From the sequence record MW650886.1: a DNA stretch of 64,000 bases; one strand, given 5' to 3'. The position numbers and the translations under genes were made by a program. Source of the stretch: Escherichia phage vB_EcoM-ZQ1. The notes under the pieces are model-generated. The model was not told the origin of the DNA. It made no database searches and saw only the letters and a program-made list of their open reading frames with translations. Positions within the stretch are counted from its first letter, which is position 1; every line of letters starts with the position of its first letter. Positions 8,621-54,245 of the stretch are shown piece after piece.

Positions 8621-8866
8621 CTACACTAATTTCTTGGACTTTAGCGCGTCTTTGATCAGGCGCGCATCGGAGCACTCAGCTGTCAATCGTGACAACAATG
8701 GTGCTGTAATCATCTTTTTGACTTTGGTCTCGTCTATGTCGTTCTCTTCACAGACAGATGCCAGAGTCTCAAGGATACTATCCTTGGTTTGGGCGGCGCG
8801 TAGTAGGACGATTTCAGAAAATAATTCTGGTGTCATCACAAGCGCTGGCTGTTTTTCGTCAGACAT
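8621..8866 (-). CDS. hypothetical protein
   Basis: 81 aa minus-strand ORF. Confidence 0.4.
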   Translation of the reverse strand: MSDEKQPALVMTPELFSEIVLLRAAQTKDSILETLASVCEENDIDETKVKKMITAPLLSRLTAECSDARLIKDALKSKKLV

Positions 8867-9405: not shown

Positions 9406-9992
9406 ATACCTCTGTTGAAGTCTGGATTATTCTCAATGAAGTAAGAGCCACAAGCCATTATCGCAAACGAATCCACGAGGTCATCGATTGGCTTGGGATC
9501 CTTAACTTCCAACATATCCATTATACCGCGCATGCTAACATTGAACAGCGACTCGAAGTGAGCGATCATGGCGTGTTTATCCGCGTTGCCCTTGTCGGTG
9601 AACATCTTCTTCACATGGGATGGCGTCACGATCTGGAAGTCGAAATTGTTACGGCGCAGGGCTTGCTTCAATAGTGAGGTATTCTCTGCGGTCTGGCATA
9701 TGTTGTTGGAGTTCTTAGAGTTGCCCATAGCATACCCTTCAAGAGCGATCGCATCCGGCTTCTCAGTCAACAGAACAGCCTCAGCCCATTTACAGATATT
9801 ATAGAAGCGTTCTTCTGGGGTCTCCCACTTCGGTTGCTTCATGATAAGGATGTTCTGACGAATCTGAGTGCAATACTTCTCCACAGTATAATATGCGTAG
9901 AAGCGCAGATGATCAAAATCAAGAGGGTCTTTATCATCCCAGAAGCACAGGGATGGACAGCCATAGGAGTAGTCGATTCCGCAATATTTCAT
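9402..9992 (-). CDS. RuvC-like Holliday junction resolvase
   Basis: N-terminal MKYCGIDYSYG (RuvC GIDPG-like) and C-terminal DDLVDSFAIMACG (RuvC D..AD.LAIA-like); listed start is TTG, re-set to the internal ATG. Confidence 0.5.
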   Translation of the reverse strand: MKYCGIDYSYGCPSLCFWDDKDPLDFDHLRFYAYYTVEKYCTQIRQNILIMKQPKWETPEERFYNICKWAEAVLLTEKPDAIALEGYAMGNSKNSNNICQTAENTSLLKQALRRNNFDFQIVTPSHVKKMFTDKGNADKHAMIAHFESLFNVSMRGIMDMLEVKDPKPIDDLVDSFAIMACGSYFIENNPDFNRGI

Positions 9993-32497: not shown

Positions 32498-33605
32498 CCA
32501 GTTTGTTCAGGCGTTGTTGGGCAGCATTATAGAAGTGCTCTGCCAGTTTACAGACATTGTCGGGGCGCTGAATGTTGTTCCCTGCGCGGATATCCTTCTT
32601 CAGGACTTCCACCGCATCGGTCGCCACCATCTCTTCGGTGACCTCAACCTTCTCGGCAGCAACAGTAATCGTCCGGTCGATGAAGTTGTAGTCGATACAC
32701 TTGCAGCGCTTCATGGCATCACAGAACTTTTCATAATGCTTAGCATTGTCGCGGTTCTGTACAATAACCTTAACGATTTGCCCTTCAATACCCAAGCCTG
32801 TGTTCAACCATTCCGGGTCGATCCAATTACCTTCTTCATCAGAGGACAACTTGGTGTAATCATATTCCACATAGCGGAACAGCGTCTGGTGCTCGGCGTT
32901 CGGGATAAAGATCTCACCACCACGCATGTCGTCTACATAGAAGCCACGGTTAGTGCCGTCTTTGTAGTCTTCCCAGTTCAGGTGATATGGAGTCCCAATA
33001 TATTGAATGTTACCTTCCATCGAACGGGTATGGAAATGCCCCGTGTCGACCCTGGTAAACTTGGAAAGCAGAGCAACGTCGATCTGACCGTGATCACAAG
33101 TAGAAGACTGGTACATTTTGAACCCCGCCAGCTCCAGATGCGCAAAACAGTACTCGGCGTCTGTATCTTGTATCGCTTTAATAGACGCATCATAGTTCTC
33201 CTTGTTGATCCAAGGTAGCAGTAGAGTCTTGACACCCTCGATCATCACTTCGGTCGGTTCGCTGTAATAGCAGTACACATCCGGGTCGAGTTCGTTCAGG
33301 TAGGATGGCCAGTTGATGCGGTTGGACTCTTCCAGGGTGATGTCATGGTTGCCCACGATGCCATTCCACTTGATACCAGCCGCTTTCAATGCAGGGGTGA
33401 GTTCATCCTTCAGCCAGTCTTTGTCACGACCGTACATGAATTTGCGGACATCAAACGTATCACCGAACTGCCAGACCTCTTTGATATCAGAGTCGGCAAG
33501 TTCAGGAATGAAATAATTGATGAGATAGTTCTTGATGAAGTCGCGAACGTATCGAGAACCATTACGGCTCCCGATATGCAGATCACCAATTTTAGCAATC
33601 GCCAT
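32490..33605 (-). CDS. 47: recombination nuclease subunit (T4 gp47 / SbcD-Mre11-like)
   Basis: GDLHIG, GDTFDVRK and IVGNHD phosphoesterase motifs match T4 gp47 (GDWHLG, GDIFDVRK, IVGNHD). Confidence 0.85.
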   Translation of the reverse strand: MAIAKIGDLHIGSRNGSRYVRDFIKNYLINYFIPELADSDIKEVWQFGDTFDVRKFMYGRDKDWLKDELTPALKAAGIKWNGIVGNHDITLEESNRINWPSYLNELDPDVYCYYSEPTEVMIEGVKTLLLPWINKENYDASIKAIQDTDAEYCFAHLELAGFKMYQSSTCDHGQIDVALLSKFTRVDTGHFHTRSMEGNIQYIGTPYHLNWEDYKDGTNRGFYVDDMRGGEIFIPNAEHQTLFRYVEYDYTKLSSDEEGNWIDPEWLNTGLGIEGQIVKVIVQNRDNAKHYEKFCDAMKRCKCIDYNFIDRTITVAAEKVEVTEEMVATDAVEVLKKDIRAGNNIQRPDNVCKLAEHFYNAAQQRLNKLDA

Positions 33606-34333
33606 TATTCTGTTTCTCCTTCGGTTTCGTCTAGGCCGAATTGGGTATTGCCGAAGTCCTGATCTAAATTTTCTTCGGCCTGCGCTGGTGTCGTATTCTT
33701 AGCCTGCGCCATGTATTGAAGTATACCTTTCGCAATCTTTTTATTCGATTCTGCGAGACGAGCTGCCTCCACCTTCTCTCGTTCCTTCTGCCTTTGAGCG
33801 TCCTTTTTGTTCTCAAAGTTGCCGATACGTTCACGGAAGTCCATGCCAATTCCTGTAGCATCAACAAAGATCTCTTGTTGGAAGTCGGGGTCATCTGCCA
33901 GGCCTGCGAACCCACCCGCCTCTTCAAATGAGCGCAATTTAATGTACGTGTGCTCTTCTTCGATGTTCAGTTTACGAGCAAATGAGCGATCAGCACACAT
34001 GGTCACCCAAGAAAAGAAGTTGATCTTCCCTTTCTTACCGATGTGGTCGACGTCAAAGGTGTGGAGGTAACGCAGGATGTTGACGATTGCTTCAGAGACC
34101 ATGTCTTCACGGAAGGGATAATCGCGATAGTTGTAGCGGGTACTCATCTTGGTGATGATGCGCTGGACCTGCAGAGCAACATAGTTGGGGATCTTTGGAA
34201 GCCTGGTGCCCTCAGCAAGTGCTTTCTTGCGGGCGGGGATCCAATCACGAAGGATACTAATGACACGCTCGTTGTCTTCGTCCGTGAAATATTTGACGAC
34301 ATTCTCCCCTCTGTCCACGAAGTTCATTCCCAT
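33605..34333 (-). CDS. 55: late-transcription sigma factor (T4 gp55-like)
   Basis: RYNYRDY..EDMVSEAIVN..YLHTFD resembles T4 gp55 RFNFSGY..EMIADGIEA..GLHNFD; directly upstream of gp47/gp46 as in T4; acidic C-terminal extension. Confidence 0.6.
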   Translation of the reverse strand: MGMNFVDRGENVVKYFTDEDNERVISILRDWIPARKKALAEGTRLPKIPNYVALQVQRIITKMSTRYNYRDYPFREDMVSEAIVNILRYLHTFDVDHIGKKGKINFFSWVTMCADRSFARKLNIEEEHTYIKLRSFEEAGGFAGLADDPDFQQEIFVDATGIGMDFRERIGNFENKKDAQRQKEREKVEAARLAESNKKIAKGILQYMAQAKNTTPAQAEENLDQDFGNTQFGLDETEGETE

Positions 34334-34344
34334 TATGATAGCCC

Positions 34345-34872
34345 TCAGATACCGATAAATTCATCAAAAGATCCAACAACCTTCTTCACCGAGATCTTGT
34401 CATTCTCAATCAGGAAGTTGCTGTCGTTTTTGGCTGCTGTAGCCCAGTCATCGGCAAGTTCGTTGCCTTCGTGCCCCGCATGACCCTTAACCCATTTTAG
34501 TTCAACATCACAAATTGAACAAACGAGATCATAGATTCTGAACAGATCTTTGATGAGTTCAACGTTCTTTTCTGGGAAACCCTGATACTCCCACTTCGTT
34601 CGCCATTCAGTGACACTCTTGATGGCATATTGACTGTCAGACCAAATTGTTGCCTTTGGTATTCTGCGCTCACCCTTTCCTGAGAATGCCCACAGTAGCT
34701 TCAATGCGTTGGTCACACCCAACAACTCGGCGATATTGTTAGTGGACGGGGGAGGTAGATGACCGAAGAACACCTTCCATTGCATACCCGTTATTGGCCT
34801 GATGACAAATGCCCAGCCTGCGGCCTGGTTGGTCTTCGGGTTAGAACCCCCGTCAGAATAAATTTCTATCAT
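34345..34872 (-). CDS. rnhA: ribonuclease HI (bacterial RnhA-type)
   Basis: IEIYSDGGSNP...AGWAFVI and C-terminal WVKGHAGHEGNELADDWA match the RNase HI catalytic core; start re-set to MIEIYSD. Confidence 0.8.
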   Translation of the reverse strand: MIEIYSDGGSNPKTNQAAGWAFVIRPITGMQWKVFFGHLPPPSTNNIAELLGVTNALKLLWAFSGKGERRIPKATIWSDSQYAIKSVTEWRTKWEYQGFPEKNVELIKDLFRIYDLVCSICDVELKWVKGHAGHEGNELADDWATAAKNDSNFLIENDKISVKKVVGSFDEFIGI

Positions 34873-34874
34873 GA

Positions 34875-34882
34875 TATAAATA
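34875..34882 (+). promoter_or_regulatory. T4-type late promoter motif TATAAATA
   Basis: Exact TATAAATA 35 nt upstream of the ATG at 34918. Confidence 0.5.
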
Positions 34883-34917
34883 TCCCAAACTGGTTTTATA
34901 GAAAGAGGAATGAAACT

Positions 34918-35685
34918 ATGGCACCCCGCGCATATCGTTTCAGTCTCACCGCCCCGCAGATTGAGCAATTGCTCCTCTCTATCTATGATGCTATCAAGTC
35001 AGAAGATATCATCTATGATTATGCTGCAGGTGGGACTGCTGGACAAGTCGCAGCAGCGTCTGCTGTCAAGAACATGTGGTTGAAGCTCAACGAGATGGTG
35101 ACAGGCCAAGGTCTCAAAGATGCCATCAACGATGCAGAAGACAGCAACGTGTTCACCGACTATTATAAGTCTTTACTGGATCGCGAAGGCTGGAAATTTA
35201 TTGGATCGCCAGCAGATGAACTTCAGCGAGGCGACATCGATACCTCGAACTTCAAAGGTGGTGAGGTCATTCTACTTCAGAAGAACGCTTCGGGCAACCC
35301 AGAATTCCAATACTGGAAGCGAACCCCTGTTGCTGGGGGTGATCCTACCTTTGCATGGGCTTCGGTCTATGAAGGGAACTCCAATGATTCCAGCATAGAG
35401 ATTCCCGTGGTTGGCACCAGCGTACTCAAGGACATCCCCAAGGCACTCTTCCATATGATCGAGTTCAGAGTACATGTCTACGATGAGACACTGGGTCATT
35501 GGCAAGACACCGACGGGAAGGTAGGGTATCGTGGCGAGGATCTGATCTACAGTGTCTACAACCATATTCAGACCAAACCTCTCGCCACCATTGACTTCAG
35601 CCAAGATACGGACAATATGACGGTTTCTGTGACGTCGTTGGAACCGAATGTCAAGTGCCGTCTGTCCTTCGTTGCGGGTTACTAA
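34918..35685 (+). CDS. hypothetical protein, probable late gene
   Basis: ATG MAPRAYRF with AAGAGGAA SD; TATAAATA 35 nt upstream; the longer listed ORF begins inside the divergent RNase H gene. Confidence 0.5.
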   Translation: MAPRAYRFSLTAPQIEQLLLSIYDAIKSEDIIYDYAAGGTAGQVAAASAVKNMWLKLNEMVTGQGLKDAINDAEDSNVFTDYYKSLLDREGWKFIGSPADELQRGDIDTSNFKGGEVILLQKNASGNPEFQYWKRTPVAGGDPTFAWASVYEGNSNDSSIEIPVVGTSVLKDIPKALFHMIEFRVHVYDETLGHWQDTDGKVGYRGEDLIYSVYNHIQTKPLATIDFSQDTDNMTVSVTSLEPNVKCRLSFVAGY

Positions 35686-37400
35686 ACCTCAAACACGGCA
35701 TCAGTGAACCAAGCGGGGAAGAACTCTGGGTTGCGCATCATCAGTGATTCAAAAGAAGAATCAAGGATGTACGTCGCAGCCCAGTCATTCACGCCCCTGA
35801 CCGAACGCCCACACATCTGAACGATACGCAGTACCGCCATCCTGAAGTACGCCGATGGGTCCACACTGTTGACGTGGGCCACCAGAGGATCACCAAGGTA
35901 ATCGTATGGCACCTTGATCAAGATCTGAAATCGACTATAATCGCCTTTGAAGTCATACCCCTCTTCCATGGCCGGACTGGCGATGACACAAGGCGTCTTC
36001 GTCCTGAACGCGTGTTCCATGATGTCCATCAGAGCCTTACGAGTACGAGGAACGTGAATCATATTCCGGTACTTACTGAACTTTTGTAGAGCCAGGGCGC
36101 GGTCATAACTGACTGTGTGAATGATGCCAGACTGTCCAGGGTGGAACGCGATAATTTCATCCACGTATTCAGCCAGCTTCTTCATCTCGTAGTCACCCAT
36201 GTTCGCTGTCATCTTCATGATGGGCATGTAGTTGACTTTCCGGTTCTCAATCGGGATAGGGTTGCCGATCTGTATCTTGTGGTACTCACCCTCGCGGATA
36301 CCCAGTGACCGGGCGTACGAGTCAATCCCACAAATGGTAGCCGACATGTGAACGTGGTAGTCACCCTTGCGGAACAGGCCGAACTGGGATACATCAGAGG
36401 CGATGACAGGCTTGAACTGAATCATACCCTTGTCCTTCTCCTGTACGATGAAAGTGCTGGCGTTGGTCTGCCCCATGATACCGCAGTAGTCACTGAGGTT
36501 GTGAAGAGTATCAATAATATCAGACAGCTTCATCACCTGGGCTTCAGTCAGGCGCTCGTCCTCTACCAGTTCCTCAAGAGTTTCCAACAGGGCTTCAACC
36601 TTGCCGTGCAGTTCATCAAATATCGCATGCATCTCACCAGACAGGGAATACAGCTTGCCCAATTCATAGTTCTCTGTGCGGATGATGATATCCTTGATGG
36701 TCTCCACGATAGACACTCCCTCGGGGATCGTAAGCAACCCTTCCACAGCCTTTATGTTGTATTCCATGATAGTATGCTCTAGGAGCGTAGAGGGCATTTT
36801 ATGACACTCGTCAAGGATCAGCATATCGGCGCGGTTTTCCGGCTTCATACAGATCGTCGTGCACATCTCCACCATCATGGCGGCGTTGGTGCAGCGCAGG
36901 GAGGAGACGTCGGTCCACTGTCGACGCGCCTGAACATATGGGCAACGATTCTTACTACAGTGGCCATCACGGCATGCCATACGGCACTGAATGGCGTTGT
37001 AGTATAGGTCGGGACTGATGTGGCAACGATAGTTCTTCTTGCCCTTCAGGATGTCTATCGCCACGGCTTTCTCTGCTGCATACTGATCCTGTAAACCTTT
37101 GGTCGGCGTCGTGATAGACGTGCGGAACTGACCATACGGGTTGTGCTCAAGAACCAAATGGCGAAGCACGTTATGGATGGTAGTGCCGATGAGGGATTTA
37201 CCTACACCAGTCGGAGCCTCGATGATCACGTGTTTGAATTTCTTATTCACAAGGGCATCAATGGCTTCAACGATGCATTCCATCTGGCCGGGGTTGGCGG
37301 TGTCATACGGGAAGAACTCAGTGGCAAGAGACTTGATGCGGTCTATGCTGACTGGTCCGACGCCGTCAAGCGCCTTGGTATATTGGTTGAATGCTGTCAC
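35682..37400 (-). CDS. DinG/XPD-like (Rad3 family) DNA helicase with Fe-S cluster cysteines
   Basis: Walker A PTGVGKS, DECH box (LILDECHKM), four-Cys cluster CRMACRDGHCSKNRC; GTG start with strong SD AGGAGGAAG. Confidence 0.7.
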   Translation of the reverse strand: MTAFNQYTKALDGVGPVSIDRIKSLATEFFPYDTANPGQMECIVEAIDALVNKKFKHVIIEAPTGVGKSLIGTTIHNVLRHLVLEHNPYGQFRTSITTPTKGLQDQYAAEKAVAIDILKGKKNYRCHISPDLYYNAIQCRMACRDGHCSKNRCPYVQARRQWTDVSSLRCTNAAMMVEMCTTICMKPENRADMLILDECHKMPSTLLEHTIMEYNIKAVEGLLTIPEGVSIVETIKDIIIRTENYELGKLYSLSGEMHAIFDELHGKVEALLETLEELVEDERLTEAQVMKLSDIIDTLHNLSDYCGIMGQTNASTFIVQEKDKGMIQFKPVIASDVSQFGLFRKGDYHVHMSATICGIDSYARSLGIREGEYHKIQIGNPIPIENRKVNYMPIMKMTANMGDYEMKKLAEYVDEIIAFHPGQSGIIHTVSYDRALALQKFSKYRNMIHVPRTRKALMDIMEHAFRTKTPCVIASPAMEEGYDFKGDYSRFQILIKVPYDYLGDPLVAHVNSVDPSAYFRMAVLRIVQMCGRSVRGVNDWAATYILDSSFESLMMRNPEFFPAWFTDAVFEV

Positions 37401-37449
37401 TTTCTTCCTCCTATGGGATTCGCCTATAGTTTACCCGATCCCCAAGAAC

Positions 37450-37478
37450 GAAAAAGCCGGAGCATTGTACTCCGGCTT
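37450..37478 (-). terminator. intrinsic terminator after the HU gene
   Basis: AGCCGGAG-CATTGTA-CTCCGGCT hairpin followed by TTTTTC. Confidence 0.55.
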
Positions 37479-37529
37479 TCTCTTTTGCCATGCCCTGTAA
37501 TGCAGAGCCTGGCCGCGCGTCAGATAGAA

Positions 37530-53576: not shown

Positions 53577-54245
53577 TTACTCAATCTGTGCGCCGACGAA
53601 GTAATTGATCGTCGCGTCGGATGATTGGAAGTTCACCATCTGTAGATCAGCACAGGCACGCAAAGTGTAGTTGCCTTCGATCATTTTCAGGTTGGCAACA
53701 TCCAGCGGCATTACGAAGTCCGGCAGCGCGGTTTCGCCCAGCTCAACAGTGTAGTTGTTGGAGTTGTCCAGGGTAGTAGTGGTTGCAACCAGGCGAGTTT
53801 TGCCACCCTGAGCAACCAGGCGCACAGTCTTATGTCCGAGGGTAGAACAGGCGCGGGTCAGTTCTTTCATCTTCTCTGGAGTGATGATCGCTTCAAAGTC
53901 GACAGACGGCAGTTCAATAGTATCAGCCGGGACAACCGTGAGTTCTTTAGCAGAACGCCAGAATTGCAGCTGAGAACTTTCGCCCTTCAACAGGATGTAG
54001 TCCTGATGGAATTCGGCTTTGGCACCTTTAAAGGAAGGTAGGCGCTGGATAGCCAGAAGTTTGGTCAGGTCCAGAATCGGGAACTCAAACGGGAAGTCTT
54101 CTTCGATCTGCGCCACGGCGATCACAGTAGAAGAATCATTAATACTGCGCAGCATCTTGCCCGGTGTCAGAACGATAGATGGGTTGATGGTCTCAAAGTT
54201 GGCCAGCAACTGAAGTGTACGTTCGGAGAGAGTGATCTCTTGCAT
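53577..54245 (-). CDS. 45: sliding clamp (T4 gp45-like)
   Basis: 222 aa, the size of gp45; two-domain beta-rich protein directly upstream of gp44/gp62/regA in T4 order. Confidence 0.8.
   Translation of the reverse strand: MQEITLSERTLQLLANFETINPSIVLTPGKMLRSINDSSTVIAVAQIEEDFPFEFPILDLTKLLAIQRLPSFKGAKAEFHQDYILLKGESSQLQFWRSAKELTVVPADTIELPSVDFEAIITPEKMKELTRACSTLGHKTVRLVAQGGKTRLVATTTTLDNSNNYTVELGETALPDFVMPLDVANLKMIEGNYTLRACADLQMVNFQSSDATINYFVGAQIE

Follow-up and report, generated by a model that had tools for sequence, protein, structure and literature searches.

A conserved ribonuclease HI gene set back-to-back with a late virion-protein gene in an Agtrevirus-like Ackermannviridae phage

The window analysed here, by which we mean the whole stretch of 64,000 nucleotides from Escherichia phage vB_EcoM-ZQ1 (MW650886.1), carries two genes that point away from each other across a very short spacer. 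One of these, which we call rnh, encodes an RNase H-like protein, and the other a virion protein. Together with their minus-strand neighbours they make up the following locus:

33605-34333, minus strand: gp55-type late sigma factor gene (PHROG 234, E=1e-51), directly downstream of rnh and followed by gp47 and gp46
34345-34872, minus strand: rnh, 175 aa plus stop (stop codon 34345-34347, ATG 34870-34872); the protein begins MIEIYSDGG
34873-34917, between the divergent genes: spacer of 45 bp separating rnh from the late virion-protein gene
34918-35685, plus strand: late virion-protein gene, 255 aa, MAPRAYRFSL... (PHROG 3833, function not assigned)
35682-37400, minus strand: gene for a DinG/Rad3-type DNA helicase, lying upstream of rnh in the same orientation

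The start of rnh is the conserved ATG at 34872, and the coordinate 34917 given for it in a preliminary description of this DNA is the last base of the spacer, outside the gene. The gene belongs to an extended block of minus-strand genes (clamp loader ... helicase, rnh, gp55, gp47, gp46 ...) that is broken by a single plus-strand gene, and the synteny of this block around rnh is kept throughout the family, Vibrio phages included.

A megablast search with 33000-37500 returned 256 related phage records. Over the whole query, Escherichia phages LHE287, YX22, PC3 and PH4 match best, with 98% identity. Every related record that was inspected in detail falls within the Ackermannviridae, formerly known as the 'ViI-like' phages, and the genera represented are Agtrevirus, Limestonevirus, Kuttervirus, Taipeivirus, Miltonvirus and Vapseptimavirus. 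Judged by its sequence matches, the phage is an Agtrevirus-like member of the Ackermannviridae and not a T4-type phage (Straboviridae). The annotation of the close relative P46FS4 lists a T4-like replication set consisting of gp43, gp45, gp44/62, gp41, gp61, gp32, gp59, ligase and UvsWXY, several of which are located in the window. Many of the related records listed, out of the 256 found, already name the gene ribonuclease HI or RNase H. As a side observation on its downstream neighbour, the gp55 ORF is 242 aa long in the window and in Dickeya phage LIMEstone1, and is annotated with 263 aa (792 bp) in P46FS4 and FEC14. The C-terminus of gp55 from P46FS4 differs from that in the window, a sign that the genera differ by frame or by an indel at the 3' end of this sigma factor gene.

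The product of rnh matches Pfam PF00075 over residues 3-147 with 88.7 bits (gathering score 25.8; E=5.3e-25) and PHROG 531 'Rnase H' with E=3e-59, and phmmer retrieves wild-type and mutant E. coli RNase HI from the PDB sequences (E of about 1e-11). In the active-site alignment, D7, E49, D79 and D141 correspond to D10, E48, D70 and D134 of the E. coli enzyme, and H131 corresponds to H124. Across 26 aligned homologues, spanning 28-91% identity, D7, E49, D79, H131 and D141 as well as the TNN and DSxY motifs are invariant, and H131, the counterpart of the flexible-loop histidine, falls within VKGHAGH. The AlphaFold2 model of the protein reaches a pLDDT of 95.2 and a pTM of 0.91, and at least the 40 top matches of this model in a Foldseek search against the PDB are E. 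coli-type RNase HI (E of about 1e-12, TM 0.67-0.79, rmsd 2.8 Å). Sequence and model together show the rnh product to be a type-1 RNase H in which no active-site residue is missing and for which the RNase HI fold is predicted with confidence, and the invariance of that site strongly supports the catalytic competence of the predicted enzyme.

Within the RNase HI family, the protein stands at some distance from its bacterial counterparts. Its identity to bacterial RNase HI is approximately 32-36%, and against NCBIfam NF001236, the bacterial rnhA equivalog, it scores 76.4 bits, which is below the cut-off of 160. By this NCBI criterion, the sequence is to be placed in a divergent phage clade and is not an rnhA equivalog. 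Helix C with its Trp residues is retained, whereas the basic protrusion loop is six residues shorter than in E. coli RNase HI and nearly neutral instead of strongly basic; a direct residue count gives 4 K/R and 5 D/E in this segment, versus 7 K/R in E. coli. Unlike the E. coli enzyme, the phage protein also carries insertions behind strand 3 and helix A, and it ends in about 25 additional, ordered residues that form a strand (160-165) and a helix (169-173). This C-terminal extension is common to the phage clade in the form K-V-V-G-S-F-x-x-F-I in the 26-sequence alignment. The possibility that the C-terminal tail KVVGSFDEFIGI serves as a disordered clamp- or SSB-binding peptide was considered and rejected, the AlphaFold2 model showing a strand and a helix packed on the domain with a pLDDT above 90. 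The C-termini of the phage's polymerase and gp33 hold no motif resembling this tail. Taken together, the identity of only 32-36%, the score below the equivalog cut-off, the short protrusion and the C-terminal extension argue for a distinct, old phage clade rather than a recent capture from the host. Homologues of RNase HI are present in 707 of 50,697 phage records, including those of ICP1 and of jumbo, Geobacillus and Proteus phages.

In T4, the gene named rnh is annotated as a 5'-3' exonuclease of the FEN family that processes Okazaki primers. We searched for such a nuclease among 1916 stop-to-stop ORFs from the window and from the complete 158.7-kb genome of P46FS4, using as queries T4 rnh, the 5'-nuclease domain of E. 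coli Pol I, T7 gp6 and a small three-seed profile. It should be noted that the sensitivity of this search is limited, with the seeds detecting each other at 10-13 bits. Among these 1916 ORFs the single seeds never exceeded 6 bits for a FEN-type nuclease, and the best score of the profile was 8 bits, on an ORF of 65 aa. The only other annotated exonuclease genes are those of DexA and of a PD-(D/E)XK protein next to UvsY/UvsW; the latter was considered as the missing FEN nuclease and rejected, as it belongs to PF12705 and not to the FEN family. The preliminary description had taken the rnh product for a true enzyme of the RNase HI fold that carries the catalytic motifs, and had contrasted it with the FEN-type enzyme of T4. 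The domain annotation (PF00075 and PHROG 531), the structural matches and an alignment on which all four DEDD carboxylates are present bear out the first of these statements, and since no FEN-type enzyme was detected in the window or in P46FS4, the contrast with T4 stands as well, within the sensitivity of the search.

So what would such an enzyme do in the infected cell? RNase HI requires about four ribonucleotides in a row and does not remove the one at the junction, and pentaribonucleotide primers of the T4 type are marginal substrates for it. The gene context of rnh and the fact that no FEN nuclease is detectable suggest a role in replication, where the enzyme would cut the RNA strand of RNA-DNA hybrids, be it Okazaki primers or R-loops, during synthesis of the phage DNA. 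As RNase HI leaves the junction ribonucleotide, the phage would still need another 5' nuclease to deal with it, probably host Pol I. Furthermore, if the gp61-type primase makes T4-like primers of 5 nt, primer removal may not be the main role of the enzyme, and RNase HI may then matter more for R-loops than for primers. The shortened, near-neutral protrusion could in addition lower the binding of hybrids. For T4 itself, Hobbs and Nossal (cited in PMC12571901) showed that one of two enzymes has to be present, the phage RNase H or Pol I of the host. In the viable genome-reduced Ackermannviridae mutant selz_4t3 (139 kb, compared to 154.8 kb in the wild type) rnh is intact, which is compatible with its importance and is no proof of essentiality.

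An alternative that has to be weighed here is that the phage retains RNase HI for something other than removing lagging-strand primers, such as the processing or removal of R-loops at origins, the relief of conflicts between transcription and replication, counter-defence against hybrid-dependent host systems, or a structural role that is independent of nuclease activity. The altered substrate-binding protrusion and the additional C-terminal strand and helix of the clade would fit with such a role, as would the poor quality of short T4-type primers as substrates and the occurrence of homologues in many unrelated phages (the 707 records mentioned above). Moreover, phiKZ155 of the jumbo phage phiKZ is essential independently of its nuclease activity (PMC12571901), so that it cannot be taken for granted that selection acts on catalysis. 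However, the catalytic residues are invariant across the clade, which argues for selection on catalysis, rnh is embedded among replication and recombination genes in a synteny kept family-wide, and a defence-related context is absent. On balance we consider a role apart from primer removal unlikely, though worth keeping in mind, and favor the replication role given above.

On the other side of the spacer, the product of the late gene finds no match in Pfam or NCBIfam. It is 91.8% identical to ORF093 of LIMEstone1, annotated as 'confirmed structural protein', and mass spectrometry of purified LIMEstone1 virions identified ORF 93 with 40.8% coverage and 8 unique peptides (Table 2 of Adriaenssens et al. 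2012, PMC3296691). The AlphaFold2 model of this product is poor (pLDDT 60), with a C-terminal beta domain at approximately 85-90. A likeness to T4 gp9, the baseplate tail-fibre connector, was rejected: it came as the single significant Foldseek hit in the PDB (E=3.8e-7, TM 0.34) and found no support from hhalign or HMM comparison. The two proteins do have a short R-x-D-I-D-T-S segment in common, at comparable positions. The 3' ends of the late gene and of the convergent helicase gene overlap by 4 nt (35682-35685) with no terminator between them, so that late transcription can be expected to continue into the helicase gene in the antisense direction.

Within and next to the spacer, three further elements can be read:

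34875-34882, plus strand: late-promoter core TATAAATA, extended to 34886 as ATAAATATCCC, 2 nt from the rnh start codon
34883-34886, minus strand: GGGA, the sole Shine-Dalgarno-like element available to rnh, whose AUG follows 10 nt downstream (direct reading)
34905-34909, plus strand: GAGGA, Shine-Dalgarno sequence 8 nt before the ATG of the late gene

Two promoter motifs of the family have been described in the published literature, CTAAATAcCcc for late and TTCAAT-N14-TATAAT for early promoters, and ATAAATATCCC fits both the former and the T4 late consensus. The core TATAAATA is placed 35 nt before the ATG of the late gene, within the approximately 25-40 nt that characterize a -10 element of the T4 late type, and is followed on the plus strand by a leader of about 28 nt and the Shine-Dalgarno sequence. 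The window holds three copies of TATAAATA where 0.83 are expected, and at least three were reached in 2 of 100 shuffles; by itself this count is weak evidence, and the case for a promoter therefore rests on position and conservation. In seven Ackermannviridae lineages, Vibrio phages included, only 1-2 nt separate the late core from the rnh start codon, while the remainder of the spacer diverges. Read from that codon, the window and LIMEstone1 have CAT-ga-TATAAATA, Kuttervirus has CAT-g-TATAAGTA, Taipeivirus CAC-ga-TATAAATA and Miltonvirus CAT-g-TATAAATA, and the two Vibrio phage lineages have CAT-t-CTAAATA and CAT-a-CTAAATA. The length of the spacer ranges from 33 to 47 bp across the seven lineages (33-36 bp in the Vibrio phages), and the distance from the core to the late ATG varies.

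The motif is also found where late promoters are to be expected elsewhere in these genomes. In P46FS4, 14 of the 29 [CA]TAAATA sites have a Shine-Dalgarno-plus-start 15-60 nt downstream, compared to a background of 5.9% (p=2e-10), and in the window this holds for 6 of 12 [CA]TAAATA sites; the same late motif is seen ahead of the genes for capsid, portal, sheath and baseplate. Exact TATAAATA has five copies in the P46FS4 genome, four of which pass a scripted test for a Shine-Dalgarno-plus-start downstream. The fifth is the rnh spacer itself, where a start follows too and the script chose another ATG. The factors on which gp55-dependent transcription relies are encoded in the window as well, with gp55 at 33605-34333, gp33 at 8624-8866 and gp45 at 53580-54245. 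Finally, the LIMEstone1 record (HE600015.1, from 2012) annotates ORF092 as 'putative ribonuclease HI', a 'putative late promoter' -10 signal in the spacer, ORF093, and a terminator upstream of the helicase gene. Motif, conservation and this published annotation together show the spacer to hold only a predicted gp55-type late promoter and the leader of the virion gene. With the elements of both strands counted, no part of it is left unused. A G-rich element equivalent to the GGGA of rnh is present in other genera. As GGGA lies beyond the promoter core, the core itself forms the stretch between the Shine-Dalgarno element and the AUG in rnh mRNA, and the strict abutment of core and start codon across the family may reflect genome compaction under two simultaneous constraints.

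How, then, is rnh transcribed? The preliminary description was right about the gap to the divergent gene at 34918, the spacer measuring exactly 45 bp, and in calling that gene late, given the late-promoter motif upstream and the 92%-identical homologue confirmed by mass spectrometry in the LIMEstone1 virion. Its further claim, that this short spacer has to accommodate overlapping early and late promoters, found no support: no sigma-70-like site and no early motif of the family are found there, and LIMEstone1 has a late promoter only marked at this position. A sigma-70 scan of 34873-34917 returned nothing, with 8 sites in the region compared to 7.0 +/- 2.4 in shuffles, and TTCAAT-N14-TATAAT is absent both from the spacer and from the minus strand of 34873-37400. 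Over the window as a whole, this early motif has 22 matches where 4.7 are expected, mostly on the minus strand. Several of the minus-strand matches at 9520, 18847, 39070, 42986 and 62104 share a GGGCGG-like element just upstream of the -10, which suggests that the early-promoter consensus of the family may be longer than the published one. Within rnh, a possible early-type promoter for gp55 (TTCAAT-N14-TAAAAT, 34519->34494 on the minus strand, one mismatch) was rejected as probably due to chance or specific to the genus: it lies about 150 nt upstream of the gp55 start and is kept in the close relatives checked, Limestonevirus among them, and is absent in Miltonvirus.

From its position inside the long minus-strand block, rnh does not appear to need a promoter of its own. 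The LIMEstone1 record has no promoter for RNaseHI or for the helicase, and the nearest minus-strand promoter annotated there is about 7.7 kb upstream. In the simplest reading of the gene order, transcription of rnh probably begins further upstream and crosses the late gene in the antisense direction. In this reading, rnh would be expressed along with the helicase, gp55, gp47 and gp46 from minus-strand promoters further upstream, and the transcripts would pass antisense through the single plus-strand gene of the block. One element upstream of the helicase gene bears on this:

37453-37479, no strand assigned: G+C-rich hairpin AAAGCCGGAG...CTCCGGCTTT with T-runs on both strands, between the DNA-binding-protein and helicase genes; annotated in LIMEstone1 as a factor-independent terminator

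The hairpin looks like a bidirectional terminator, which would end late antisense transcripts and attenuate minus-strand read-through into helicase and rnh. Due to this hairpin, read-through from further upstream is not guaranteed. The literature searched contained no enzymatic work on proteins of this family and no usable transcriptome study of the Ackermannviridae or of Kuttervirus.

If read-through is attenuated, transcription might start again within the block, and the hairpin thus argues for internal re-initiation somewhere. A promoter for rnh could be embedded in the coding sequence of the late gene, on the opposite strand, with the following candidate giving a leader of about 280 nt:

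35162-35167, minus strand: candidate internal -10 element TATAAT (35167->35162), inside the late gene and antisense to codons T-D-Y-Y-K-S; speculative

This hexamer is the same in five enteric genera, two synonymous Tyr positions included, and identity at synonymous codons is 0.70 in codons 71-95 of the late gene versus 0.49 overall. However, two synonymous sites are weak evidence with many codons tested, the hexamer has no recognisable -35 element or extended -10, and it is not kept in the Vibrio members of the family despite the same gene arrangement. Promoter-like sites in the region are no more common than in the shuffles, and even if real, this TATAAT would leave expression of the helicase gene unexplained. 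An internal promoter is therefore a possibility that we rate as unlikely. Sigma-70-like sites also occur on the antisense strand of the late gene, at 35046->35018 and 35297->35269. They were rejected: counts of such sites are no higher than in shuffles, and the hexamers of 35046->35018, the only one of the two that was checked, are not conserved.

Transcription of rnh from upstream would also place it in the path of late transcription. Conceivably, the family-wide placement of the late core within the translation-initiation region of rnh serves as a switch in time and does more than save space: firing of the gp55-dependent promoter would collide head-on with minus-strand transcription into rnh, gp55, gp47 and gp46 and shut it down. 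We regard such a temporal switch as rather doubtful; if true, it would amount to negative feedback on the late sigma factor, with RNase HI turned off late in infection.

Less probable still is an early promoter of rnh inside the 45-bp spacer that physically overlaps the late one, as had first been proposed from the closeness of the two start codons. Direct reading does show a TATAAA on the minus strand, where it precedes the rnh ATG by 22 nt, but it has neither a -35 partner nor a TG extension and is not kept in Miltonvirus or Kuttervirus. Moreover, a -35/-10 promoter followed by a leader with a Shine-Dalgarno sequence takes about 50-55 bp where the spacer offers 45 bp, and the spacer of the Vibrio phages is shorter still, at 33-36 bp. 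Together with the scans without a match and the choice of the LIMEstone1 curators to put a late promoter only at this position, these points make an overlapping early promoter improbable.

That the rnh ORF is a decayed or inactive RNase H-like remnant, which its sub-cut-off equivalog score and its protrusion shorter by six residues might bring to mind, is hardly credible with DEDD and His invariant in 26 homologues of 28-91% identity, a model pLDDT of 95 and a gene that is intact in hundreds of genomes. As a whole, the locus is best explained by a conserved RNase HI of the Ackermannviridae that has a role in replication and is transcribed from upstream, next to a spacer with a late promoter only, and we consider this likely to be correct.

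Beyond correct annotation, the finding matters little: the original observation was correct, its interpretation was partly right, and neither is new. What retains some interest is how Okazaki fragments are completed by a T4-like replisome in which no FEN nuclease is detectable, and whether an RNase HI with a truncated protrusion acts there or on R-loops. The same goes for the point at which the helicase-rnh-gp55 transcript starts. The strict family-wide abutment of the late core with the rnh start codon is mildly interesting.

Several known systems can be set beside this locus. The phiKZ155 protein (Nlp2) of phiKZ likewise has a PF00075 domain, and its RNase H activity has been demonstrated and linked to genome amplification (PMC12571901). 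It carries an additional large C-terminal domain and acts in the phage nucleus, whereas the protein described here has a single domain and a predicted role. T4 rnh and the RNase HI of this phage are unrelated in fold and mechanism and have no sequence similarity; all they have in common is the presumed task of processing primers on the lagging strand of a T4-type replisome. It so happens that T4 (149787-150809) also has its rnh divergent from a late gene, gene 34, at a distance of about 100 bp, so this phage is not alone in placing a nuclease of replication and a late gene back-to-back. With E. coli RNase HI (rnhA; PDB 1RNH, 2RN2), at about 32% identity, the phage protein shares the fold, the DEDD carboxylates, His124 and the TNN and DSQY motifs. 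The closest parallel for the locus itself is LIMEstone1 (HE600015.1), which has gp46, gp47, gp55, RNaseHI, the divergent ORF093 and the helicase in the same order as the window, and a 45-bp spacer of identical sequence. The RNase HI of the window is about 90% identical to that on a 152,427-bp contig equal in length to the LIMEstone1 record, and LIMEstone1 differs by its genus and some sequence divergence only, with no structural difference at the locus. The arrangement of RNase HI, late promoter and virion gene is thus an ordinary and already known one, annotated together in LIMEstone1 since 2012.
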